DNA from: an uncultured archaeon
Lineage (GTDB): Archaea > Asgardarchaeota > Jordiarchaeia > Jordiarchaeales > Jordiarchaeaceae
DNA: 24,455 bases
Assembly (NCBI GenBank): GCA_964510585.1
Contig: CAZECW010000156.1
Location: forward strand, 1 to 24,455
Direction of reading: 5' to 3'
In this document: positions 1 through 12,995 of the stretch, one piece after another
Numbering within the stretch: the first letter of the stretch is position 1
How the letters are laid out: every line of letters starts with the position of its first letter
Made by a program: the position numbers and the translations under genes
Notes under the pieces: generated by a model
What the model was told of the DNA's origin: nothing
The model's database searches: none
Seen by the model: the letters and a program-made list of their open reading frames with translations, nothing else

Positions 1-63
1 ACACTTGAGGCCGCCCAGTGGGAAGTAGAATTAAAGGTCGCGGTGTACAACCAGCTCTGCTAA
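1..63 (+). CDS. 3' end of an unidentified CDS running in from the window edge (TLEAAQWEVELKVAVYNQLC*)
   Basis: Frame +1 is open from base 1 to TAA at 61-63; frames +2 and +3 hit stops within the first 30 nt. The family is not recognised. Confidence 0.4.
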   Translation, partial: TLEAAQWEVELKVAVYNQLC

Positions 64-95
64 ACCGCCACCGGAAAACCCGTGGCGGGGCAGAG
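55..95. other. GC-rich hairpin overlapping the upstream stop codon
   Basis: CTCTGCT(55-61)/GGCAGAG(89-95) helix with one T-G pair, AAA bulge, CCGCCAC(65-71)/GTGGCGG(82-88) helix, AAAA loop (75-78). No U-tract follows it. Confidence 0.55.
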
Positions 96-211
96 GAAAA
101 ACTGCACTAAAAGGAAAAAGAGATAATTATGCAACAGGGCAAACCAATCAGAACATTTTAAAAAACTAGTAATATTAAAAAGGGGCTCAAGTCTAAAGTC
201 AGTAGGTTTCT

Positions 212-1039
212 ATGGTAGTAAAATTACTGGTGATAGGCTTGACAAATCATAATAATCAAATCTTCAAGCTCTCTGAGATAAATAGAACAAAGAAACCAAG
301 AATTGAGGGAATAACAGCCATTATTGATACTGGTCAAGGCCTCCCTACAACAAAAGATGTAATTGAAGGTGCCGCGAATTATATTGATTATTGTAAGTTT
401 GGATGGGCGACTTGGCTCATACAGCCCAAAGATCTACTGAAAAAGAAGCTAAAACTCTATCATTCCCACGGAATAAAAACGCTCAGTGGAGGTTCCGCCC
501 TAGAAGCCGCTATAATTATAGGAAAAACTGAAGCGTTTCTAGAAACACTCAAAACTCTAGGATTTACCGCCATCGAAATTTCCACAGGTGTTGTTAACAT
601 ATCCCCTCAGGAAAAATCGGAACTAATAAAAAAGGCTAAACAATTAGGGTTTCAAACCGTAATAACTGAAGTGGGCAGAAAAATCAAAACTGAGGACGCT
701 CAGCTCAAAATTTCTGACCGCATAAAACAGATTCAAAATGATTTAGACTCCGGGGCGGATTATGTAACCATCGAAGCTCGGGAAAGCGGAATTGGAATAG
801 GCCCCTACGACGAGGAAGGAAAAGTAAAAGAACCATTTATAGAAGAGATCGTCGCCAAAATACCATCCAAAAAAATTATCTGGGAAGCCCCACTCAAATC
901 CCAACAGTTATGGCTCATTACACGGTTTGGGCCTAATGTAAACCTCGGGAACATAAGACCCACCGATGTTATTCCCCTCGAAACACTTCGCATAGGACTA
1001 AGGGGAGATACTATGACTAAGTTCCTAGCTAAAAAGTGA
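212..1039 (+). CDS. comA: Phosphosulfolactate synthase (ComA family, TIM barrel)
   Basis: Family motifs KFGWAT, GGSALE, IEISTG, EVGRK, EARESG, IWEAPLKSQQ, NVNLGNI. The likely true start is TTG at 239, after GGTGA. Confidence 0.93.
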   Translation: MVVKLLVIGLTNHNNQIFKLSEINRTKKPRIEGITAIIDTGQGLPTTKDVIEGAANYIDYCKFGWATWLIQPKDLLKKKLKLYHSHGIKTLSGGSALEAAIIIGKTEAFLETLKTLGFTAIEISTGVVNISPQEKSELIKKAKQLGFQTVITEVGRKIKTEDAQLKISDRIKQIQNDLDSGADYVTIEARESGIGIGPYDEEGKVKEPFIEEIVAKIPSKKIIWEAPLKSQQLWLITRFGPNVNLGNIRPTDVIPLETLRIGLRGDTMTKFLAKK

Positions 1040-1767
1040 AAAAAATGCCTCTAACTCTAAAAAAAGAATCAACGGAAAATCAAGACGGGGAAGACTTTGA
1101 GGTTCACCTCGCATTCGGGACGCGAGGGGCCTTAAGAGCAGCACAAAAAAAACACATTATAGTTCTGGTTGACACCTTAAGAGCCAGCACAACAATTACT
1201 ACTGCATTAGACAATGGGGCTAAAAAAATTATAACAGCCGCAACAGTAGAAGAGGCAAAAAAACTAGCGCAAGAAATCCGAGACAAAGTCGTCCTGGCGG
1301 GGGAAAGACAAGGTTTCAAAATTCAAAATTTTCAACTAGGAAACAGTCCACTCGAATACACACCGGAAATAGTAAAAGGAAAAATCATAATACTTACCAC
1401 CACTAACCTTACAAGAGTAGCGAACAACGCTAGAATCGCCCCACACCTTTTTATAGGTTGTTTAATTAATGCCAAATCGGTAGCCCAAAAAGCTAAAAAA
1501 ATGGCTCTAAAGACAAGAAAACCAATCACAATAATACATGTGGGAAGACTTGACGAATACGCGCCAGAGGATTACATTGCTGCCCAAATAATAAAAAAAT
1601 ACATTCAAAACAGCCCTATTCCAAAAAACATAACCCAAAGAATATACAACACGCCTAACGCCCAATACTTAACACAAATAGGATTCCAAAAAGACGTACA
1701 ATATTGCAGCCAACTAAATATCACAACTACCGTACCCACCTACAAGAATCAAGCCTTCCAGAAATAA
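1036..1767 (+). CDS. comB: 2-phosphosulfolactate phosphatase (ComB family)
   Basis: Motifs VDTLRASTTI, LAGER, GNSPLE and TTTNLT (usually TTNGT). Overlaps the comA stop by 4 nt, indicating an operon. Confidence 0.9.
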   Translation: MKKMPLTLKKESTENQDGEDFEVHLAFGTRGALRAAQKKHIIVLVDTLRASTTITTALDNGAKKIITAATVEEAKKLAQEIRDKVVLAGERQGFKIQNFQLGNSPLEYTPEIVKGKIIILTTTNLTRVANNARIAPHLFIGCLINAKSVAQKAKKMALKTRKPITIIHVGRLDEYAPEDYIAAQIIKKYIQNSPIPKNITQRIYNTPNAQYLTQIGFQKDVQYCSQLNITTTVPTYKNQAFQK

Positions 1768-1939
1768 TTAATATTTCATAATTTAAAAAATTACAGAAAC
1801 TCTTTTTACGACTATCAAAGACTCAAGTAGACTCTTTTTAGGTAAGCACCTATAAACTTACATTTCTCAGGCAGAGAATGAAAATATGTTTTTAATAGCG
1901 TATATAGGAGCTACTAGAGATACTATTTGAAGCCTATTT

Positions 1940-2641
1940 TTACTCACGGATCCAAACGACTTTGCGAGCTTCGTCCTTTTTACCCTTAAGATAGAAGAGA
2001 CGCAGACCGTACTCCCAAGCCAATTGCTGCAGAGCTACAGCACTAATACGAGTACCATCAGTTACATCTAGAATGACTTCTTTTCTGCCTATTTCTCTTT
2101 CCACAATACTCTTGGCTACTTCGTAAATCCTCTTAAAATCATGCATCGCATACTCAGGAATCCAAATAATCTCTGCATTGTCCGGCTTACCACCAATTCT
2201 AGTACGCATCTCGCTCTCCGCAATAAAAACATAACTATCAGGGTCGATTCCTGTCTGCTCCCTTAAGCGCCGCCCCACTTCCCTCACCAGTAGAGGCTCA
2301 CTGTCTAAACTGCACAAACACAAGATAGGCGCTCTAACATTCAGATACCTACGAACCGCCTGTACCATAGTGGGAACAATCTCTGCATACTTACTCTTCC
2401 ATTCACGATACCGATTAATAAGTCCACTATTTTCTAACGCCTGCAAATTAAAATACAGTTTAGCGTCACTAATATCGTCTACATTAACCCCCAACTCCTT
2501 AGCCAAAGCATCCCTAAGCTCATACCCTGTTTTGGGACCCTCTAACAACTCCTTTAAAATAATCCGACGCGCCTCAACGCCTCCAATAGCCCGTTCAACA
2601 ATCATCAAGGGATCACTCAAATCCAACACACCCAACAACAA
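1940..2641 (-). CDS. Transcription regulator with N-terminal winged HTH (PadR/ArsR-like) and C-terminal CARF-like Rossmann domain
   Basis: N-terminus RRIILKELLEGPKTGYEL...KLYFNLQALENSGLI fits a wHTH. C-terminus has CLCSLDSEP and VILDVTDGTRISAVALQQLAWEYGLRLFYL, resembling the CARF DxTxGx[KR] strand-helix-strand. Confidence 0.7.
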   Translation of the reverse strand: MLLGVLDLSDPLMIVERAIGGVEARRIILKELLEGPKTGYELRDALAKELGVNVDDISDAKLYFNLQALENSGLINRYREWKSKYAEIVPTMVQAVRRYLNVRAPILCLCSLDSEPLLVREVGRRLREQTGIDPDSYVFIAESEMRTRIGGKPDNAEIIWIPEYAMHDFKRIYEVAKSIVEREIGRKEVILDVTDGTRISAVALQQLAWEYGLRLFYLKGKKDEARKVVWIRE

Positions 2642-3183
2642 TTAAATACTGAACACCGAAGATTATTAATCTAAATAAATATTAAAACCAACCCACCAAA
2701 CTGGAAGTGGCGCCTTTTTCCCTAGACGGCAGAATGGCGCAGGACATCCACCAGGGCACGAAACTCATAATCAATACCAAATTAAAGTTCCCAACACGGA
2801 ATAATAAATCTAACCCCAAAAAAGCCCCCGATAATACCAAAAGTCAGTTTTTCACCTTCAAAAAAATAATCACTGCATCCCTCATATTCATTATAAAAAT
2901 TTAAGCGAAAACTATGCTTAGAACGATCCTGCACTACCACTCAGACACCATTCGTATAACCTTAACAAAAGAGGGAACATCAACTCTATGGATGATATCG
3001 ATGATAAAGATTAGGTAAAAAAAACATTTAAAAGAACCAAAATCAATAATATAATCAAACAAAAACTTAATTTTAAAAAGCAAGATAAAACACATCCAAC
3101 AACAATAAAACCAACCACAAAAAAATAAAATAAAAATCACTAAAAATAAAGAAATCATAAAAAAATAAAGAAGAGGAAAAAAT

Positions 3184-4338
3184 ATGGCGATAGGACCACC
3201 CGAAGAAGAACTCGTAGCCGCAAAACCTCTAGTCCTAGACAACGGCACAGGACTAACCAAAAACGGATACGCAGGAGAAGACCAACCAAGATCCGTATGG
3301 CCCACATGCATAGGCTACCCAAAATACGCCTCAATCATGACCGACGTAGAACACTACACCCGAGAATACTACATCGGAGAAGAAGCCCTAAACCTGCGAG
3401 GCGTACTAAGACTAGTCTACCCCGTCGAGCATGGTACGGTTAATGATTGGGATGCTATGGAGAAGATTTGGCACTATACCTTCTTTAATGATTTGAGGGT
3501 TGACCCTGCTGAGCACCCCGTACTACTGACGGAGGCGCCTTTGAATCCGCGTAAGAATCGCGAGAAGATGGCGGAAATCATGTTCGAGACCTTCAATGTA
3601 CCTGCAATGTATGTTGCCATGCAGGCGGTGCTTTCGCTGTATGCTTCTGGGCGAACCACCGGACTGGTGATTGACTCTGGTGACGGTGTGACTCACATTG
3701 TACCCATATATGAAGGTTTTGCACTTACTCATGCTATCACTAGGATAGATCTTGCGGGGAGAGACCTTACAGAGTATCTCCGCCGACTGCTGAGGCAAAG
3801 AGGTTATTCTCTGGTGTCGAGCGCAGAGCGAGAAATTGTGCGGGATATAAAGGAGAAGCTTTGCTACGTCGCCCTAGACCCTGAGAAGGAGTTGAAGCTG
3901 GCCGAGAAAGTTGCGGGTATGGAAAAGACGTACATGTTGCCAGATGGTGAAACCATCACCATCTCCAGTGAACGCTTTTTGGCGCCTGAAGTGTTCTTTA
4001 ACCCAGGCGTGGTAGGTCTGGATGCGATGCCTCTTGATGAGGTAATAGTGGAGTGCGTCAAGAAGTGTGATGTTGACTTGAGGCGTGACTTGTACGGGAA
4101 CATTGTTCTCAGCGGTGGCAGCACCATGTTTCCAGGCCTTAAGGAACGCCTACACAAAGAGATTAGTGAACTAGTGCCAGAAAACATTGAAATCAAAATA
4201 ATTGCGCCGCCGGAACGGATGTACTCCGTGTGGATCGGCGGGAGTATATTATCTTCTTTGAAGACTTTCCAGAAGATGTGGGTCACTCGGAAGGAGTACC
4301 AGGAGCAGGGCGCTGCTGCTATTCACAGGTGCTTCTAA
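3184..4338 (+). CDS. Actin, Asgard/eukaryote-like (Lokiactin-type)
   Basis: DNGTG and DSGDGVTH phosphate loops. Segments almost identical to eukaryotic actin: [75 protein letters not shown]-terminus HRCF. Confidence 0.97.
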
Positions 4339-4339
4339 A

Positions 4340-4660
4340 CTAGGACTGATATATCCCTTCTCTTTTTCTTTTTTCTTTTATTTGTATTTTGGAGCGGTTT
4401 CGTAATTTGTTTGTGGCTTATCCATGCTTGTTTTTCATATTTTATAGGGGTACTGTTTAGAAATTGTTACTGTTTTTTTGCTCATGATTTTTTGGGTTTT
4501 GTTTTCTGGGGTTGGTTTGGTGGTTTTTGGCATTTTTGTGGGGTTTGGGTGTCTAAATTTTTGGTGTTTCCTGTTTTGTGATGTTAGTTAGGTTTGATTT
4601 GGTGTTTTGAATTTTTGGATTTGTGTTTGTTAGGGAGTAGGGGTATTTTCTTTGTATTTA
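4340..4660. repeat. Low-complexity G/T-rich intergenic tract
   Basis: Hand count: 53 of 60 bases in 4501-4560 are G or T. Contains many T(n)G(2-4) units and no credible ORF. Confidence 0.8.
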
Positions 4661-4879
4661 TGTGATAATACTAAAGTTTATATATTAATTGGGATAATAA
4701 GAGTTCGCTTTGTTTGAAGGAAAGGGAAGTTTGTTCTTTAATAGGATTTGCGTGGCGTGTTGGTAAGTTGTTATTTTTCTCTCCTCCCAACTTGTCTTTG
4801 GTCCTTCCCTCCTCCCAATTCTTCCCTTTCCTTTCTACTTTTGTATTTTGGATTTTGTAGGGTTAGTGTTTTAGCGGGT

Positions 4880-6091
4880 TTATTGTTTGGGTTGGGAGTG
4901 TTCTTTTTTGGTTAGGAGGTTCATGAATTGTTCTCCTATTAGGTAGCCTAGGGCGCCTTTTTTGGCTGAGTTTTCGTCGAACGTTTGTGTTTTGTCGCCT
5001 TTTTCGTTATTACAGTATATTGCTATGGGAACAGGGTCGTTGGTGTGCGTTTTTATTTTTATGGGGGTTGGGTGATCTGGTAGAATTGCGATTTTGTAGT
5101 TATCGGCTAGGTCAGTGATATTGTTCAGGACTTTTCCTACTATTTTTTGGTCTATGTTTTCTATGGCTTTTATTTTGTTTTCTATGTCTCCGGCGTGTCC
5201 TGCTTCGTCTGGGGCTTCCACGTGGATGTAGATGAAATCATGGTTTTTTAAATGTTTTAAGGCGTATTCGGCTTTTCCAGTATAGTTTGTGTTGTAGTAT
5301 CCTGTTGCTCCTGGAACCTCTATGGTTTTGAGGCCTATTAGTTTGCCTATTCCTTTTATTAAGTCTACTGCGGATATTATGGCGCCTTTAACTCTGAATT
5401 TTTCTTTAAAGCTTTCTAGATGGGGTTTTTTGCCTTGCCCCCATGGCCATATGGAGTTTGCGGGTTTTTTTCCTTCTTGGATTCTTTTTATGTTGATTGG
5501 ATGGTTTTTTAGGATTTCTTGGGATTTTTTGATGAGTTCTAGTAGAATTTCGCTTCCTTCTCCTCTCGGAAGGTGGGGGGTAATGGTTTTGCCTGTTATG
5601 TCGTGGGGGGGTGTGCATTCTGCCCTTTCAGTTTCTTCATTCTTTATCAGTAGGATGTGTCTGTAGCTTACCCCGTTATAAAACTTTATAGAGTTGCTGC
5701 CCAGCTTTTTGTTTAATGTTTTGATGATTTCCTTTGCTTCGTTGCTGTTTATATGTCCTGCACTGTAATCTTCCATTTTTCCGCTCTCTAGTGTTACTAG
5801 GTTGCATCTAAAAGCTGTTTCTTCTCTCTTTAGTTTTATTCCTAGTGAAACCGCTTCTATAGGGCCTCTTCCTGTATAGTATTTTAGTGGGTCGTAGCCT
5901 AAGATGGACAGGTTTGCTATGTCGGATCCTGGCTGCATTTTTTCTGGGATGGTTCTAAGTATTCCGCTTTTTCCCATCATAGCGATATAATCCATGTTTG
6001 GTTTATGGGCTACTTGTAATGGGGTTTTCCCGTTCAGTTCCTCAAGGGGGTAGTCTGCCATTCCGTCTCCAATAATCACAATGTATTTCAC
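4880..6091 (-). CDS. apgM: Cofactor-independent phosphoglycerate mutase, archaeal ApgM type (alkaline phosphatase superfamily)
   Basis: IIGDGMADYP, TPLQVAHKPNMD, GSDIANLSILGYDP, GRGPIEA, HVEAPDEAGH, LPDHPTP, HTNDPVP. GTG start preceded by GGTGA. Confidence 0.92.
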   Translation of the reverse strand: MKYIVIIGDGMADYPLEELNGKTPLQVAHKPNMDYIAMMGKSGILRTIPEKMQPGSDIANLSILGYDPLKYYTGRGPIEAVSLGIKLKREETAFRCNLVTLESGKMEDYSAGHINSNEAKEIIKTLNKKLGSNSIKFYNGVSYRHILLIKNEETERAECTPPHDITGKTITPHLPRGEGSEILLELIKKSQEILKNHPINIKRIQEGKKPANSIWPWGQGKKPHLESFKEKFRVKGAIISAVDLIKGIGKLIGLKTIEVPGATGYYNTNYTGKAEYALKHLKNHDFIYIHVEAPDEAGHAGDIENKIKAIENIDQKIVGKVLNNITDLADNYKIAILPDHPTPIKIKTHTNDPVPIAIYCNNEKGDKTQTFDENSAKKGALGYLIGEQFMNLLTKKEHSQPKQ

Positions 6092-6457
6092 AGATGGTCA
6101 CCGATGCTCTAAAATTGACTCTTATAATTTTAAAAATGTGGGGGGTTTCATATCTTCTATGTATCTTTGTAAACTTAGTCAGTAGCTTTATTTAAAATTG
6201 ATTCAGGATCATGAAAAGCAGGTTAACTCGGGGTTTATTTGAGGTTTTTAGTCGCTCATAACTCGAGAATTTTTTAGTTAGGTTGGTTTCAGTTCCCAGC
6301 ATTACCAAAAATTGTAAGTTACTATCCTCCAAGGCGAATGAGGAAGAACAGGGGAAAATAGCTAAGAAAACAAGTTTAACACTTCGCTCGGGTAAAAATT
6401 AAATTCACACTGTGACAAGATATTTTAGTTTTCATTAATTTCTTTTCTGGAGGGATT

Positions 6458-6961
6458 TTGTTGCCTTCTCAAGTTGGTGTCATTGGAAGTGATGGTAACA
6501 TAAGCGAAAGGGTAAAGATTCTGGCCCAGAAGATAGGGCGACTGATTGCTAATCGAGGAATGATTCTTGTCTGTGGGGGTCACTCGGGTGTGATGGAAGC
6601 TGCAGCTAAAGGTGCAAAACAGGAAAAAGGTATTACTGTTGGAATTATACCTGAAGGGGATAGAAGGTGGGCTAATCCGTTTTGCGATATTGTAATTGCT
6701 ACGGGTATTGGTAGAGCTAGGAACCTAGTGATTGTAAATTCAAGTGATGTTTTGGTTGCAATATCGGGAGGACCCGGTACACTGTCTGAGATAGCTTTAG
6801 CTCTTGCGGAGAAAAAGCCGGTCATTGTGTTGAAGGGATCAGGAGGGGTATCTGATTTGCTCGCAGGCAAAATGATTGGAGATTCTAAAGTTTTGGAGGC
6901 TGAGTCTCCCGAAGAAGCGATAAATCTAGTTTTAAAAATTACCAAAAAGTTGGTTACTTGA
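6458..6961 (+). CDS. LOG-superfamily nucleotide-binding protein (TIGR00725-like)
   Basis: VCGGHSGVMEAAAKGA, ATGIGRARNLVIVNSSD, GGPGTLSEIALA. Confidence 0.88.
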   Translation: MLPSQVGVIGSDGNISERVKILAQKIGRLIANRGMILVCGGHSGVMEAAAKGAKQEKGITVGIIPEGDRRWANPFCDIVIATGIGRARNLVIVNSSDVLVAISGGPGTLSEIALALAEKKPVIVLKGSGGVSDLLAGKMIGDSKVLEAESPEEAINLVLKITKKLVT

Positions 6962-6966
6962 TACTA

Positions 6967-7674
6967 CTAGAATACTCTTTGGGTGAATATACTTGTGGCT
7001 AATATTCCTAGGGTAAAGGACAGCCAGAAAAGTAGTACTGATGCAATAGCATATATAAATGGGTGTTTTGTTTCTGCAACTTTTGCGGCGGAATATGATG
7101 TTATTACGCTTATTGTACACAGGGTGACTAGTGTGGGCCAATAAATTCCAAGTTGAAATCCAATTATGCGTATCGTTAAGAATTGATATTGAAAAATGTT
7201 TGAGGATATGGAAAATAGCGGTGCGAGGGAACTAATTAGCCCCATTATGGCTGAGGCGGTAGCTGAAAGTATCTTTATTTTAAATAATTGTGCTTTGAGT
7301 TGATTCTTACGCTCCTCTACCAGTTGTTGGTCTTCTCTTATTTCCCATATGGTTCTTTCGAGCATTTTACCTGTTTCTCGAGAATTTTTAGTTAAAGCCT
7401 TCTTGACTAACCATAATATTCTTCTAATTTGAGCATTGCCAAATAATTTATCAAAGTGGTCCCAAACCTCTTCTAGCGAAGAACTCCCTAGGATAACTTC
7501 GTTAGCTATAGATGTTAGCTGCTCTTTTAATGGCCCCGAATAGCTCTTAGCCGCTATATTCAAAGAGATTTCTGGGCTTTTCCCCCTTTTTAATTCTTCA
7601 CTAAAGTAAGTTAGAAAGCTCAAAATCTCTTGGAAAATTTCTTCGTTTTCAAGCTCCATCTCATACTCCTCCAT
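6967..7674 (-). CDS. Type II secretion system F domain membrane protein (TadC-like)
   Basis: Segment ELKRGKSPEISL...GPLKEQLTSIANEVILGSSSLEE fits the T2SSF helical pattern. About three C-terminal hydrophobic helices. Co-oriented with the secretion ATPase. Confidence 0.75.
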   Translation of the reverse strand: MEEYEMELENEEIFQEILSFLTYFSEELKRGKSPEISLNIAAKSYSGPLKEQLTSIANEVILGSSSLEEVWDHFDKLFGNAQIRRILWLVKKALTKNSRETGKMLERTIWEIREDQQLVEERKNQLKAQLFKIKILSATASAIMGLISSLAPLFSISSNIFQYQFLTIRIIGFQLGIYWPTLVTLCTISVITSYSAAKVAETKHPFIYAIASVLLFWLSFTLGILATSIFTQRVF

Positions 7675-7722
7675 TTATTAGATAGAATCTTATATCTACA
7701 CTAATTTTTGGTTACATTCCAC

Positions 7723-8619
7723 CTAATTGTAAGTGTGTTTTGGTTTTGTTTCTAAGATGTTAGTTTTGTTGCGTGTAACGAATCGTTCAAGAACCACTAG
7801 GATCACAACATGCATTGGTATTATCACTAAAAAGAGTGGATTTGCACCTAGCCCCCTTATTAATAATCCTAGAGATATTACTATGGGTATAAAGAAGCCT
7901 ATGCCCATTACTATGAGTAAGCGTGCTTCGAGTTCTAATGTATGCCTTTGATATTCGTTTCTAATTTCACGCTGTGCGATTCTCACGGTTTTTTCAGCGA
8001 AATCATCAGAGATTTCTGTAGATTTTAGTATTGTGGGAATGTGGATTTTTAGGGTTTCTGTGGGTTGATTGTGAGCAAAGTTTACAAGCAACTTCTCTGG
8101 TTTTTCGCCCGAGTTAACCCAGTTTGCTATTTTTTTGAATTCCTGAGAAATAAGGGGATAATCCGCATTAGCTACAAATAGAATAAAATCAAAAATCGAC
8201 CCCGTGGAAGACAATACGAAGAGGAGTTCTTCCAAAATGAAGTCAGCGTAGCGAGCCACTGTCCAACGATTTTCGGTATATTTCTTCGGAAAATACGTCA
8301 ATACATAATTGCATGCAAAAATGAACATTGCTAGTGAAAGCACAGCAGCTAATAGTATATTAAAAAAAATTCCTACAGTTAGAGTCAAAATAGATAGGAA
8401 AAGGCCGAGTCCTAATGCGCCTCCAGCAACTTCTTCGGCTGTGACTTGCCCTTCTTTAAAAAAATGGTCTATAGAAAGTATCAACTCTCTTGAGACCATT
8501 CTTTTACCAATTTTTCGTAAAGTATTATTTTTTCCGAAGAATTTAGATACTCTGACTATAGGTTTTGATTTTATAACCTTTTTATTTCTTCCATTATTGT
8601 CCTTCTTATACTTTCCCAA
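7723..8619 (-). CDS. Type II secretion system F domain membrane protein (TadB-like)
   Basis: N-terminal TM pair, then STGSIFDFILFVANADYPLISQEFKKIANWVNSGEKPEKLL (T2SSF pattern), then a C-terminal TM pair. TTG start after GGAGTGG; overlaps the ATPase end by 49 nt. Confidence 0.78.
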   Translation of the reverse strand: MGKYKKDNNGRNKKVIKSKPIVRVSKFFGKNNTLRKIGKRMVSRELILSIDHFFKEGQVTAEEVAGGALGLGLFLSILTLTVGIFFNILLAAVLSLAMFIFACNYVLTYFPKKYTENRWTVARYADFILEELLFVLSSTGSIFDFILFVANADYPLISQEFKKIANWVNSGEKPEKLLVNFAHNQPTETLKIHIPTILKSTEISDDFAEKTVRIAQREIRNEYQRHTLELEARLLIVMGIGFFIPIVISLGLLIRGLGANPLFLVIIPMHVVILVVLERFVTRNKTNILETKPKHTYN

Positions 8620-10814
8620 TCAACCACTCCCTTCTCCATTTCTTGTTCTGAAATTAATGCATAAAGACTGTGGAAAATCGAAATGTTCCTTGATAAATCA
8701 AAGATTTCATTTTCAGCCAAAACTGAGAATACTTGTTGGTATGTTTCTAATTCACTGAAAAATGATTTTTCATCTATATAATTTAGGCTTTTTATTTTTT
8801 CAAGCGTTGGTGTATTATATAATTCGCAAGAAAGAATCAATTCTTGCTCTTTAGGTTTCCATAGAAAAATATCTTTAATGACATCTTGGGAAAGAACACT
8901 TTGAATATCTTTAAACATCTCCCTATTTTTAAAATCAATCTCGCAAACACGTAATACCTTTCTTTCTCTCCTAAAATAGCTCTTCAAACGGTTAATCTGA
9001 ATTATTATACATAAGTCCCGTAAACATGAAGGAGAAACGCCATGATGAACAACCCAACGTAGAATCATATCCTCAACTGACGCTCCATGACAAGTTTGCA
9101 GTCCCGATATCCCTGAAGAAAGAGCGTGAAACATTGCTTGACTATCTTGGGCGGTTTGTATCTCTCCTAAAAACACCCAATCAGGAGAGCGATGAAGCAG
9201 GCGTATAATCTCCTTGCTTTTGTTGCGCCTTTTAATATCCTCTCCTTCGAATGGTTCAACTTTAAAACGAGCTTGATGATTCCCATATTCTGATTGAGGG
9301 ATACTCTCTATTACATCTTCTAAGTAAATTTTTCTCCAGTCAGGGGGAGTTAATATATCCAGAGCGTTTATTAGAGTTGTTTTTCCTGCTCCGGGTTCTC
9401 CTATTACAGTAATGTTCATTCTTCGTAAAAGACAAAAGAGTAGATATGCAGCTGTTTGCGCATTTAAAGTTTTATTATTTATAAGTTCTGGAATTGTGAA
9501 GGGATTCTTCCTTAGCTTTCTAAAGTCTAGGTGTACACCCTCTGGCACTAGAGGTGAAATATCTATAGAACTCCTAACATGAAAATCATCTGTTATTATT
9601 TCAGTTTTAAGGGATGGTTTTGATTCATCAAGTTGTATTTCGCTTTCCGCTCTTATACGCGTAATAATCCTCTCAATTTCTTTCTCAGTCAAAGATATTG
9701 AAGCCTTGCATCTGCCCCATGTTCTGTGGTCTAAATAGATATTTGTGCCTTCTCTATCCAAATAGAACTCTTCCACATTTGGATCAAGAAGTAGAGGCGC
9801 GATGCGACCTATACCTATACTTTCATAGCTAAACATTTCAGCTATTTTCTCAGAAGAGGTAGCGGGTATTTCAGGATACTTGAAACGTAAAAAGTTTAGG
9901 GCATCATTTTTTCTTATTTTAATTACTTCGCCCATCTTAAAAAATCCTTTTTTATTTGTGAGAATTTGATTAACCGCATGTTCAGTGATTATCTCTTTAA
10001 GAATGTTTTTTCCAAATAACTTTGTATCCATCTTGTCAACGTGGTAAAACTTCTCAGTTGAACTTCTAACTAAAAATATTGTGATGATGTACGGTCCGAC
10101 CTCATACGTATCTATTAGGATTCTATTCTCTAATTCATTTTCGTTACTTATGCTCGGCGCTTCTATTTGAATAGAGGAGAATAAATAATTGTATAAAACT
10201 TGCCTCGGCTTATTCTTGATACTTGGTCTAAGGGTGTTATATCTTTTTATAAGCTTGATTTCTTCTAGTGGCATACTGAGGTTTTCTAGTATAGATGCAA
10301 ATTCATCAAGACATCTAGAACAACGGTTTTTCTCTGTAGCGAGCGCTTTACTATGAGATTCCTCTCGTTTAAGTTCCAAGTAGGCTTTTATTGGATCCTG
10401 ATAAATAAGCGCATTTTTGTCATTGTTACCAAATATCATATCTAGAAATGATTTCCTTTCATTTTCGCATATACTACCTTTGGGGCAATCTATTTGAACT
10501 AATTTACTAAATTTGAGCTTCTCTTTAAAAATTCTAGAAATTACCTTTGCAGTTTCTAATAAATATTCAGTCTGGACTTTACTAAAACTATTAGTTATAA
10601 CGGGGGAAAAAAATACTATTTCGTCAACACTATTTTCCTCTTTTAAAATTCTAAGACACTCGGACATACATGCAGGACTGCTTTTCGGATCTGATTCATT
10701 TATATTTTCACACTGCTTATCACACTTGAATATTAATTTGCAAATAACTTTACTATCTTTTCTCTCAAAAACTCGCTCAATTTTTGTACAATTTTTTTGA
10801 GTACTTGTCCACAT
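8571..10814 (-). CDS. Type II/IV secretion-family ATPase (TadA/CpaF/VirB11-like) with a long Cys-rich N-terminus
   Basis: Walker A GEPGAGKTT, Asp box LEDVIE, Walker B VFLGEIQ, His box QTCHG. Also LLLDPNVEEFYLD and LDFRK. Confidence 0.92.
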   Translation of the reverse strand: MWTSTQKNCTKIERVFERKDSKVICKLIFKCDKQCENINESDPKSSPACMSECLRILKEENSVDEIVFFSPVITNSFSKVQTEYLLETAKVISRIFKEKLKFSKLVQIDCPKGSICENERKSFLDMIFGNNDKNALIYQDPIKAYLELKREESHSKALATEKNRCSRCLDEFASILENLSMPLEEIKLIKRYNTLRPSIKNKPRQVLYNYLFSSIQIEAPSISNENELENRILIDTYEVGPYIITIFLVRSSTEKFYHVDKMDTKLFGKNILKEIITEHAVNQILTNKKGFFKMGEVIKIRKNDALNFLRFKYPEIPATSSEKIAEMFSYESIGIGRIAPLLLDPNVEEFYLDREGTNIYLDHRTWGRCKASISLTEKEIERIITRIRAESEIQLDESKPSLKTEIITDDFHVRSSIDISPLVPEGVHLDFRKLRKNPFTIPELINNKTLNAQTAAYLLFCLLRRMNITVIGEPGAGKTTLINALDILTPPDWRKIYLEDVIESIPQSEYGNHQARFKVEPFEGEDIKRRNKSKEIIRLLHRSPDWVFLGEIQTAQDSQAMFHALSSGISGLQTCHGASVEDMILRWVVHHGVSPSCLRDLCIIIQINRLKSYFRRERKVLRVCEIDFKNREMFKDIQSVLSQDVIKDIFLWKPKEQELILSCELYNTPTLEKIKSLNYIDEKSFFSELETYQQVFSVLAENEIFDLSRNISIFHSLYALISEQEMEKGVVDWESIRRTIMEEIKRL

Positions 10815-11291: not shown

Positions 11292-11442
11292 TGGTGCTCC
11301 GGCCGGGAGGTTCGGATCAACACACGGTGTTAATCATTCGAACCCGGGTCGAGGAGGCGAGTAGGCAGGCGTTCTAATCGACCGCCAAAAGCCCCTTATG
11401 CTTAGCCAGTAATCTTATTTGGCCGGACTACACCACCGGAGC
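11292..11442 (-). tRNA. tRNA-Glu(UUC) with three introns (positions 21/22, 34/35, 59/60) and encoded CCA
   Basis: Removing 11402-11418 (17 nt), 11361-11388 (28 nt) and 11309-11336 (28 nt) leaves a 78-nt cloverleaf: GCTCCGG TG GTGT AGTCCGGCCAA GCAT A AGGGG CTTTCGC CTCCT CGAC CCGGG TTCGAAT CCCGG CCGGAGC ACCA. Each intron has a 4-bp central helix with 3-nt bulges. Confidence 0.92.
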
Positions 11443-11470
11443 TCCCTGTCAGAGGTTTAAACGCCCTTTA

Positions 11471-11485
11471 GGTATTAAATTTTTC
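11471..11485 (-). promoter_or_regulatory. Candidate BRE/TATA promoter of tRNA-Glu
   Basis: The minus strand reads AGAAAAA-TTTAATAC about 30 nt upstream of the mature tRNA 5' end. Confidence 0.5.
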
Positions 11486-11603
11486 TATTTTAAATTTTCA
11501 GCATATTAAGATTCCCCTGGTGCTTCCTATCATAATTTCCTCCATTAGTGGAAATGCTGGTGAAAAAAGTGCTCCGTGCATTCTACACCTTTGTTTTATT
11601 TGT

Positions 11604-11738
11604 TATGAAAAACATTTTCATACTTTATCTGAACCGCGTAAGCGTATGGGAGTTTCCCATGAAAAACAATTTTTCATATTTCTGTCTAAAACGCTCTAGT
11701 GTGTGAGGTTTTTTATATTTGCTATAAAAACATGTTTT
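11604..11738. promoter_or_regulatory. Cluster of palindromes, candidate operator array
   Basis: TATGAAAA-ACA-TTTTCATA (11604-11622), ATGGGA-GTT-TCCCAT (11646-11660), ATGAAAAA-CAA-TTTTTCAT (11659-11677), AAAACATGTTTT (11727-11738). Confidence 0.5.
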
Positions 11739-11993
11739 CGTTCTTTGTCTAAGAAGCGCAGCTTATGTACGTTTTTATAGGCTTTGCTTGGGTTAAAGTT
11801 TTAATACTGGGTTTCTGTATTTTTTGTTATTTTTTTATTTAATACTTTCGGTTTACTCTCTTTCTACTATATATTTGTATTTTAAAAGGAATTATTTTTA
11901 TTCTTAATTTTGATAAAAATAATTTTAAAAATATATTTTTTATTAATTAAAAATTAATATATTAAAAGTATCTAAAAATATGGTGGTTTATTC

Positions 11994-12995
11994 TTGGACC
12001 AAGACAGCGAAAAATTCCTTTGCCCCGAATGTTCGGGTGCTTTAGTATTACATACTGGCGAATTTGTGTGTAGAGAGTGTGGTTTAGTTGTTTCCAAGCA
12101 GTATTTGGCACCTATTTTCGCTATAAATGAAGATGACTTATCAACCAACCAATATAAACACTATGTAGCATTGGGCAATAGGGTCCACCTAGTTGACGGT
12201 ATGGGTAGTTATATCGATTTTCAGCGTACTCCCTTCTTTTATGATGGTCAAGGTGCGCCTCTCTCTTCGGATAAACAGGCGTTGTACAGAAAATTAAAAT
12301 TCAAATACAGTCTACGTCTAAGAATAGATAAAAGAGAATCAGATTATAGAGCGTTAAAGTCACTGGATCATGTTACTTCCATGCTCCAAATTTCGAATTC
12401 TGTACGGGATAGGGCTGCTTATCTCTATCAAAAAGCAGTCAAAAAAATTAATAAAAAGATTTCGAATCACATAGTTCTCATTGCGGCTTGTCTTTTTTTC
12501 GCCATTAGAGAATATAAAGAACTAGCACCTTTAACAATACAAGAAATTACGCAAAGCTTTAAAAAATTAGGTCATAGAATAAGTGTAAAAAAAGTTATTA
12601 GAATAACCCTAGACTTAAGATCTTTATTCATAAGGGAGCATCCAAAAATCAGAAAGAGCGAAGATTATTTATGTAGAGTAATATCTGACGTAGTATCTTC
12701 CCCAATTATTGAAAGACGTTTAAAAGATAGAGACTTTAATACAGAAGAGTATAGAAATCTACTAATGAAAGAAAGTAACCACATATTAACTAAAGTCGGA
12801 AGTACCTCCCGTGGAGGAAGAAATCCATATATCTTTGCAGTCTCCACGGTTTATTGCGCGGACCGTATAATAGCTAAGAAAAAGGCTAAGAAACCAATTC
12901 TAACACAGAAAATCTTAGCCAAAATAACCAGAGTTGCAGAGTATAGTATTAGAGACCATTACACAACTGTTCTAAAAACTATGATAATGACTTAA
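11994..12995 (+). CDS. tfb: Transcription initiation factor IIB (TFB) homologue, divergent paralogue
   Basis: Zn ribbon CPECSG...VCRECGLVV. Cyclin repeats VRDRAAYLYQKA...LIAACLFFAIRE...TIQEI and GRNPYIFAVSTVYCA...LTQKILA...SIRDHY. Confidence 0.88.
   Translation: MDQDSEKFLCPECSGALVLHTGEFVCRECGLVVSKQYLAPIFAINEDDLSTNQYKHYVALGNRVHLVDGMGSYIDFQRTPFFYDGQGAPLSSDKQALYRKLKFKYSLRLRIDKRESDYRALKSLDHVTSMLQISNSVRDRAAYLYQKAVKKINKKISNHIVLIAACLFFAIREYKELAPLTIQEITQSFKKLGHRISVKKVIRITLDLRSLFIREHPKIRKSEDYLCRVISDVVSSPIIERRLKDRDFNTEEYRNLLMKESNHILTKVGSTSRGGRNPYIFAVSTVYCADRIIAKKKAKKPILTQKILAKITRVAEYSIRDHYTTVLKTMIMT

Follow-up and report, generated by a model that had tools for sequence, protein, structure and literature searches.

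The stretch of DNA analyzed here (the window) is the entire 24,455-nucleotide contig CAZECW010000156.1 of an uncultured Asgard archaeon (Freyarchaeia/Jordarchaeia), one of 217 contigs in a 3.78-Mb metagenome-assembled genome (MAG; GCA_964510585.1, here G000); the sequencing runs that contain this DNA are hot-spring metagenomes. Its plus strand carries an actin gene (3184 to 4338; 384 amino acids; Pfam PF00022, 458 bits, 3e-137) within which strand composition switches from A/C-rich to G/T-rich while the protein continues unbroken. Third positions are A or C in 75 of codons 1 to 81, for which P(≥75/81) is 9e-15 given the genome-wide A/C-ending fraction of 0.531; by contrast, all 15 of codons 82 to 96, and 43 of the 58 codons from 82 to 139 (up to position 3600), end in G or T (Fisher p = 9e-17). 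Third positions flip at 3426/3427, and cumulative keto skew, with skew defined as (G+T−A−C)/N, has its minimum at 3423; the switch point is given as 3423 to 3427. Comparison genomes are numbered likewise (G003, G004, G005, etc.), and families carry f numbers.

In 200-bp windows, keto skew runs from −0.15 to −0.50 at 1 to 3400, is positive from 3400 to ∼7400 with a maximum of +0.61, and stays near 0 over the rest of the contig, so that mirror-image flanks spanning ∼7 kb surround the actin switch. The left arm (1 to 3423), whose plus strand is A+C-rich and minus strand G+T-rich, runs to the contig start, so its extent is a minimum. The right arm (3427 to 7400), G+T-rich on the plus strand, is composite: skew over all positions is +0.06 to +0.10 inside actin, where codons 82 to 384 are ∼65% G/T-ending overall, and peaks past the actin stop at +0.28 to +0.61 (4400 to 5600). 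G/T-ending codons also come back within G000 actin from codon ∼352 to the stop (4237 to 4338), probably an older switch position, as in four comparison genomes described below.

The flanking genes, identified by Pfam matches, follow the same strand rule. To the left, comA and comB (212 to 1767, plus strand) have A/C-ending codons, with coding-strand third-position skews of −0.20 and −0.43, whereas a PadR-like gene (1940 to 2641) has G/T-ending codons (+0.44) because it is encoded on the minus strand. To the right, apgM (4880 to 6091, minus strand; PF10143/PF01676), which encodes a cofactor-independent phosphoglycerate mutase and is convergent with actin, is ∼80% A/C-ending (−0.61), and a plus-strand SLOG/LOG-like gene (6458 to 6961) in the fading part of the arm leans toward G/T (+0.25). 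The intergenic region upstream of actin (2642 to 3183; G+C content, 0.22 to 0.35) is A/C-rich, with 49 of 60 nucleotides A or C at 3061 to 3120, and the spacer between the convergent actin and apgM genes (4339 to 4879) is G/T-rich, with 53 of 60 G or T at 4501 to 4560. Positions 3096 to 3136 and 4490 to 4530 in these two flanks are 73% complementary over 41 nucleotides, and there are several shorter pairs; this complementarity is probably a by-product of A/C-rich and G/T-rich low complexity.

An earlier, sequence-only reading of this DNA had drawn attention to the switch, and all of its hand counts (75/81, 15/15, 43/58, 49/60, and 53/60) were reproduced exactly. Its claim that the bias follows the DNA strand also held, since the skew survives control for gene orientation, both gene by gene and around 145 switches; the disappearance of skew under such control, named there as grounds for refutation, did not occur. 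That the bias fades within several kilobases was likewise confirmed, by the end of the right arm at ∼7400 and by fading over 0.5 to 3 kb around the 145 switches. The same reading took the point to be the center of a multikilobase mirror-image domain; the flanks are indeed mirrored, but the domain is not a single special one, ranking 14th of 42 same-polarity jumps in the genome (1.5-kb arms).

The switch in actin is a single node in an amino/keto sawtooth that extends across the genome and is lineage-specific. With 1.5-kb arms, G000 contains 42 A/C-to-G/T jumps (up-jumps) versus 3 opposite ones at D ≥ 0.4, and 25 versus 0 at D ≥ 0.5; with 500-bp arms there are 145 up-jumps versus 43 down-jumps, or 45 versus 7 at D ≥ 0.5. 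The earlier reading had suggested counting such points and searching them for a shared motif; none was found, as a position matrix over the 145 switches gave composition only. Whichever side of a node is considered, G and T are enriched on the strand whose 5′→3′ direction leads away from it, as had been described for actin; there the pattern is shared by three species, and other genes conserve their switches at the same codon. Mean skew is about ±0.3 within 1.5 kb of nodes, reaching ±0.3 to 0.6 in the window. RtcB, UvrA, and CDC48 are ∼95% A/C-ending and then, within a few codons, have 44 to 50 consecutive G/T third positions; third positions are near saturation (∼96% versus 97%). Genes spanning the strongest switches include those for RuBisCO-like protein, ABC ATPases, LeuRS, two CDC48 paralogues, ATP synthase B, PurD, RtcB, thiolase, and UvrA. 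Nodes occur at 2.4 to 3.8 per 100 kb, many of them within genes.

A mundane cause of the switch had also been offered, namely that two actin copies were joined in frame, either in assembly or by recombination. One observation resembles what such a join would leave: contigs of run X3 break off at 3422 and 3439, and the 2940-to-3422 piece has 12 differences while the 3439-to-4398 piece has none; this single case may reflect strain-level mosaicism at the switch. However, an 11.6-kb Logan contig from run X1 bridges 3426 with 0 differences, and a 19.7-kb, ∼2% divergent contig from run X4, an independent 2023 hot-spring study, bridges it too. Two further species of the genus (G003 and G004) switch at the identical actin codon in a 100% identical actin protein, and G000 has no second actin (next match, E = 5e-5). 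Because of the bridging contigs, the sharing by G003 and G004, and the single actin, we reject a chimeric origin, whose probability we regard as negligible. Moreover, random joins predict equal numbers of both polarities, whereas 144 further switches in this genome share the polarity of the actin switch, and the closed, long-read-validated G005 genome shows the same jump polarity as G000, counting against an artifact.

The skew is a property of the DNA strand rather than of the gene. Around the 145 switches, the plus-strand third-position shift is equal in plus- and minus-strand genes. Codon positions 1 and 2 shift by about ±0.1, and protein composition shifts with them; in 23 of 39 genes, positions 1 and 2 switch together with third positions. 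Enrichment fades over roughly 0.5 to 3 kb and is still detectable 2 to 3 kb out, beyond the 500-bp arms used for selection. Plus-strand skews of adjacent genes of opposite orientation are positively correlated (r = 0.19 to 0.26), and the correlation is positive for any relative orientation. Transcription-associated asymmetry set by each gene's own transcribed strand was rejected, since the sign of the skew on a given side is independent of gene orientation.

Nevertheless, switches are anchored at gene ends, with convergent and tandem junctions enriched and divergent ones not. Convergent intergenic regions hold 23% of switches versus 3.5% expected (6.7-fold) and tandem regions hold 31% versus 10% (3-fold), compared with 5% versus 5% for divergent regions and 38% versus 76% within genes. 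Over all gene junctions, the mean jump is +0.35 at convergent (88% positive), +0.13 at tandem, and +0.03 at divergent junctions. Coding-strand third-position skew drifts from +0.10 to −0.23 along the metagene, 5′→3′, and strongly skewed genes comprise 134 of A/C type and 43 of G/T type on the coding strand. Genes thus tend to point toward switches, and genes pointing away are equally affected. The ATP synthase operon, transcribed in one direction, has A/C-type genes upstream and G/T-type genes downstream.

A translational codon-usage program, with A/C-ending, Watson-Crick-decoded "fast" codons in highly expressed genes, would suit the metagene drift and also actin itself, which is nearly all A/C-ending in G005, G012, G023, and G011 and is highly expressed in a relative. 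In run X21, a sediment metatranscriptome, RNA contigs of this ∼93% identical relative cover 3177 to 4625; depth over actin is 65 to 466, versus ≤10 for neighboring genes, and the actin RNA begins 7 nucleotides before the ATG and extends ∼290 nucleotides beyond the stop into the G/T-rich zone. One X21 RNA contig links 4132 back to 3177 with 7 additional letters, a junction that could represent a circular form, a tandem form, or an assembly artifact. We consider such a program very improbable. On a given side of a node, plus- and minus-strand genes are biased to an equal extent but toward opposite codon endings, intergenic DNA obeys the same strand rule, and four thermosome genes are 42 to 70% G/T-ending; because these lack A/C bias, the pattern is not one of codon choice tied to expression. 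(A search of the G000 MAG for ribosomal protein L2 gave no match.)

Switches are inherited, and in one case a switch appears to have moved. Within the genus, five genomes share the codon of the RtcB switch and four share that of the UvrA switch, the closed G005 genome included in both, even though synonymous sites among these genomes are near saturation. Paralogues share positions as well: switches in two CDC48 paralogues are ≤7 codons apart, and of 17 ABC ATPase genes, six have their switch a few codons past Walker B; these six are all of ABC-2 type and carry the motif LFLDEPxxGLD. The neighbors of these six paralogues differ in orientation, yet the skew extends over them. The UvrA switch position is the Walker B motif of the second ABC module. 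As a separate observation, the G000 RtcB ORF (contig C58, 4017 to 5036; open frame of 423 amino acids) matches its Pfam model only from position 95, and its N-terminal part may be interrupted or divergent.

Whether relatives switch at the same actin codon had been put forward as a check. G003 and G004 do; the codon-81 switch is absent from G005 and from other families. Actin is almost wholly A/C-ending in G005 and in two other families (G012 and G023; G011 and G022), and in G005, G012, G023, and G011 it becomes G/T-ending from about codon 352, at the convergent actin/apgM junction. Because these genomes switch at ∼352, the codon-81 switch appears to be a relocation by ∼800 bp, from codon ∼352 to 81, in the G000/G003/G004 lineage. 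Between G005 and G000, 76 of the 119 codons from 82 to 200 changed with one amino-acid change, compared with 22 of 81 changed in codons 1 to 81 since relocation. Third-position changes in codons 82 to 200 in the G005→G000 direction were C→T (n = 28), A→G (n = 25), A→T (n = 10), and C→G (n = 3); at 4-fold sites they were A→G (n = 21), A→T (n = 11), C→T (n = 17), and C→G (n = 6). G/T density in G000 actin is maximal beside the new switch and declines with distance, and the old G/T domain past ∼352 persists. Polarized singletons among G000, G003, and G004 gave counts that were too small, and unrooted, for G003, and a reverse excess in the left arm of G000.

Four actin-like paralogues in family f4 (G012 contig C7, 4014 to 5171, and C20, 23905 to 25089; G023 contig C97, 541 to 1701, and C20, 3196 to 4434) are unusual in their own right. 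In each, a segment matching actin residues ∼86 to 380 precedes one matching ∼7 to 85 in a single open frame of 582 to 754 amino acids. This arrangement resembles a circular permutation of the actin fold, opened near residue 85 and thus close to the G000 codon-81 switch.

The polarity of the actin switch had been read as that of leading strands leaving a replication origin. To calibrate this, we used G005, a closed Freyarchaeia genome of 3,576,204 bp in the same genus (PMC11291895). Its orc1/cdc6 genes (1.637, 1.681, and 1.684 Mb; actin is at 1.782 Mb) sit where cumulative GC and keto skew peak over the interval from 1.0 to 2.2 Mb. Across this cluster the plus strand falls from +0.017 to −0.011 in keto skew and from +0.023 to −0.014 in GC skew, and the same G+T-to-A+C fall is seen in every site class (third positions in both orientations and intergenic DNA). 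Plus-strand genes make up 44.5% of coding DNA to the left of the cluster and 59.5% to the right; that is, genes point away from it. In this genus, therefore, leading strands are rich in A+C and in C, contrary to the rule for bacteria on which the sequence-only reading had relied. Because orc1/cdc6 lies at the skew maximum with genes pointing away, the published skew-based origin/terminus call for the closed genome (PMC11291895) may be inverted.

Local switches have the opposite polarity to this orc1/cdc6-linked origin, contrary to the leading-strand analogy. They are also indifferent to replichore, with 18 up-jumps versus 3 down-jumps on one G005 replichore and 13 versus 1 on the other at equal density and the same polarity, and their skew is >10 times the replication-linked skew. 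Cryptic initiation independent of origin recognition boxes (ORBs), in which bidirectional forks leave the nodes and lagging-strand templates deaminate, loses its main support on these three grounds. Its geometry fits, in that the outgoing strands are the ones altered, and yeast origins also favor convergent intergenic regions, as nodes do. However, the skew is gone within 1 to 3 kb rather than lasting to the next node, nodes are dense and often intragenic, and an event occurring once per generation would be unlikely to yield >10 times the skew of true replication; we hold this explanation to be highly unlikely. As the sequence-only reading had stated, ORBs, an AT-rich unwinding element, and cdc6 are missing at the point: no ORB-like repeat was found at 3300 to 3600, only low-complexity pseudocomplementarity of the flanks, and no unwinding element at 3426, where G+C content is 0.48 to 0.50. 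There was no Cdc6_C match in the incomplete G000 MAG, the window included, nor were additional orc1/cdc6 copies found; every genome with a Cdc6_C match has 2 or 3. The broader idea of that reading, a fixed-site, strand-asymmetric process, is supported by our data; its origin analogy and ORB-independent initiation are not.

The sawtooth is confined to certain lineages. The spread of 1-kb keto skew is 0.110 in G000, 0.112 in G012, which belongs to a different family, and 0.106 in G005, where 1.2 Mb contains 31 up-jumps versus 4 down-jumps. Spread is 0.056 to 0.063 in G006, G011, and G021, in which a lower threshold gives 16 up-jumps versus 5 down-jumps. Another eight Asgard genomes, all with canonical MutS, have a spread of 0.042 to 0.059, with 3 up-jumps versus 5 down. 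Families f1 to f4, f12, f13, and f17 are without canonical MutS and have EndoMS/NucS, and the strong sawtooth occurs only in phenotyped genomes with NucS and without canonical MutS, relatives among them not being independent samples. EndoMS cleaves G/T, G/G, and T/T mismatches and hardly A/C, A/A, or C/C (PMC4838380). The specificity of EndoMS, combined with misincorporation bias, helps to make C→T and A→G rates strand-specific in Corynebacterium (PMC6159521). Since the intermediate of every amino↔keto substitution is either a keto·keto or an amino·amino mismatch, according to which strand is new, an EndoMS-only cell would convert asymmetry of the new strand into this kind of skew. We regard the EndoMS link as a lead, not a demonstration. 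Other correlates were rejected: EndoV and UDG occur whether or not a genome is skewed, and topoisomerase IB is found in f1 and in unskewed f7 but not in strongly skewed f4. Nor do we claim temperature as a driver: RtcB and UvrA switches are sharper in the hot-spring genomes than in wetland G005 but overall spread is equal (0.110 versus 0.106).

We propose, with a probability of roughly 0.35 to 0.4, that a strand-asymmetric mutational process, acting very often and anchored at heritable nodes, has left this pattern as its footprint at equilibrium. On each side of a node, the outgoing strand would repeatedly be left unpaired, either by displacement of R-loop or D-loop type, through nucleic-acid synthesis that starts at or crosses the node, or because the incoming strand is excised and made anew. 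Once unpaired, the outgoing strand would gather C→T and A→G changes by deamination, and reliance on EndoMS/NucS without canonical MutS may sharpen the split between {G,T} and {A,C}. A transcription-linked form of this displacement is favored on grounds of frequency, because the local skew is >10 times the replication-linked one; the preference for convergent gene ends and the read-through of actin RNA into the G/T zone fit it. We speculate that the composition itself could be self-reinforcing. Among more familiar sources of asymmetry, fork stalling and canonical 5′→3′ break resection predict the opposite sign, inversions or random recombination joins predict both polarities, and deamination of the nontemplate strand of annotated genes fails because the skew is independent of gene orientation.

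Several results weigh against the proposed footprint of outgoing-strand exposure. The intergenic skew shift around the 145 switches is about half that of third positions, which a pure mutation bias would not lead one to expect. In the left arm of G000, recent lineage-specific changes comprise 45 amino→keto versus 16 in the reverse direction, contrary to the standing bias; the process may be decaying there, or the pattern may be kept by selection or gene conversion. NucS-only repair is insufficient, since the NucS-only families f2, f3, and f13 show weak signals only, and the MutS/NucS association is confounded by relatedness. Expression alone is no predictor, as the thermosome genes show. Regarding R-loops, G enrichment helps their formation, but T enrichment gives weak rU:dA hybrids. 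Finally, the proposal gives no cause for the pinning of switches to codons or for their sharing by paralogues: the 145 switches share no motif, hairpins or palindromes were not enriched at switches (6.08 versus 5.91 complementary pairs of 12; p = 0.09), and no ORB-like repeat marks 3426. "Seeding" of the actin switch by amino-acid sequence was rejected, because the minimum for positions 1 and 2 in unskewed relatives lies at codons 119 to 152, not at 81 or 352.

An unlikely alternative is excision and resynthesis converging on the node, in which the strand with its 3′ end at the node would repeatedly be removed and remade toward it. A/C-type errors invisible to EndoMS would make the new strand A+C-rich, and the exposed template would deaminate toward G+T; both effects give the observed sign. 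This sign also matches the replication rule of the genus, where the continuously made leading strand is A+C-rich. Converging resynthesis accounts in addition for the favored transversions A→T and C→G and, given the EndoMS specificity described in PMC4838380, for the absence of the pattern in MutS-bearing lineages. Against it, the polarity expected from canonical 5′→3′ resection is the opposite one, repair probably occurs too seldom to give this amplitude, and the same NucS-only families are weak. No archaeal pathway known to us degrades DNA 3′→5′ over kilobases from a fixed site.

A different reading puts the strand composition down to selection or biased gene conversion in place of mutation bias. 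It stays alive because intergenic skew is weaker and the G000 left-arm changes run counter to the standing bias, although we judge it distinctly unlikely. For example, RNA running toward a node might be kept free of U-tracts and structure and be U-rich and terminating past it, making the node a two-way terminator. The position of nodes at gene 3′ ends would suit this, as would the excess of A/C-type genes among strongly skewed ones, the stronger skew of third positions than of intergenic DNA, and the stability of the pattern across orthologues and paralogues; A/C-type genes have 0.57 runs of T≥5 per kb on the sense strand versus 8.2 on the antisense strand. On the other hand, genes pointing away are as strongly G/T-type as approaching genes are A/C-type, and the 3.8 sense T≥5 runs per kb of G/T-type genes show no depletion (183 observed versus 176 expected from synonymous shuffles). 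Codon positions 1 and 2 and protein composition are shifted too, and the ATP synthase operon changes type along a single direction of transcription.

Freyarchaeia and at least one other Asgard family may have a form of chromosome organization not known before, with >100 heritable nodes, each anchoring a very frequent bidirectional strand-asymmetric transaction and with composition as a self-perpetuating mark. At gene ends, the transaction could consist of bubbles of R-loop or D-loop type or of converging resynthesis, and it would turn synonymous and intergenic sites into almost pure G/T versus A/C for kilobases. Node positions would then propagate through speciation and duplication without a sequence motif. 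We consider this organization possible but doubtful. The sawtooth has consequences in any case. Strand-composition skew is the main view of replication, transcription, and repair that sequence alone offers in unculturable organisms, and the hosts here are Asgard archaea, the closest prokaryotic relatives of eukaryotes, whose DNA transactions are of special interest. The sawtooth distorts codon usage, amino-acid composition, and estimates of synonymous divergence (dS); phylogenies based on marker genes such as those for actin, CDC48, RtcB, and ATP synthase are affected, and standard skew-based origin prediction breaks down in such genomes. The nodes also provide >100 natural reporter sites for mutational models based on R-loops, repair, or EndoMS.

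Other features of the window lie outside the skew domain. Just beyond it, on the minus strand at 6967 to 10814, are two T2SSF-like membrane genes and a gene for a 747-amino-acid T2SSE/VirB11-type ATPase, a group whose makeup suggests an assembly module for an archaeal type IV pilus or an archaellum-like structure; farther along, at 11994 to 12995, is a TFIIB-like gene. Between them, an element at 11300 to 11780 is variable or repeated: joints in runs X4 and X21 omit 88 to 110 nucleotides, mostly with replacement letters (11308 to 11419, 11628 to 11718, and 11637 to 11726), beside an AT-rich stretch (G+C content of 0.16 at 11801 to 12000) where contig depth reaches 654 (11601 to 12000) and is very high at both ends. 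The element had no ARAGORN or Rfam match, and tRNA (ARAGORN) and Rfam scans of the window gave no matches.

In literature searches we found no published description of a kilobase-scale amino/keto sawtooth in archaea; the skew matches none of the known kinds and points to an undescribed local strand-asymmetric process. Replication strand skew (bacterial GC/keto skew, archaeal oriC, and Z-curve MK disparity) is alike in the G+T versus A+C quantity, in its C→T/A→G flavor, and in its sign inversion, but the nodes described here are local (1 to 3 kb), >10 times stronger, numerous (145 in 3.8 Mb, 25 of them strong), and often intragenic, with a polarity opposite to that of the same-genus origin and indifferent to replichore. 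Touchon, Huvet, Arneodo, and colleagues reportedly described mammalian skew N-domains with upward S-jumps at replication origins. These share with our nodes the sawtooth, the sharp T−A plus G−C jumps of a single upward polarity, and the gradual return; here, however, the scale is ∼1,000 times smaller, skew returns to zero rather than declining linearly to the next jump, the synonymous amplitude is near saturation, and the polarity argues against origins.

Strand-coordinated mutation clusters around double-strand breaks (kataegis), said to have been described by Roberts et al. in 2012, also show mirror-image, strand-specific changes that flip at one point over a kilobase range, but 5′→3′ resection predicts the opposite polarity, and kataegis is a single somatic event whereas nodes are an inherited equilibrium. 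Transcription-associated skew in human genes was reportedly described by Polak and Arndt in 2008. Human genes also have R-loop-prone GC skew at their 5′ and 3′ ends (PMC3787257). Like our nodes, gene-end skew is kilobase-scale and anchored at gene ends, especially those of closely spaced convergent genes, with G enriched on the strand displaced by RNA past the gene end; unlike it, nodes ignore gene orientation, are enriched in T as well, and often start within coding sequence.

The substrate classes of EndoMS/NucS are the keto and amino classes of the skew, and the enzyme shapes strand-specific C→T and A→G changes; such asymmetry is described only for whole Corynebacterium replichores (PMC6159521), and its link to local nodes here is correlative. 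In vertebrate mitochondria, asymmetry between the heavy and light strands is graded with single-stranded time (PMC3269012). The likeness extends to near-pure G/T versus A/C synonymous strands, to the dominance of C→T and A→G, and to a gradient along the DNA. Unlike the mitochondrial pattern, the sawtooth is chromosomal, mirror-symmetric, repeated many times, and codon-sharp at its starts, in a setting with no known strand-displacement replication; nonetheless, the signature of the mitochondrial type, distance-graded C→T and A→G changes on one strand, is found at the nodes.

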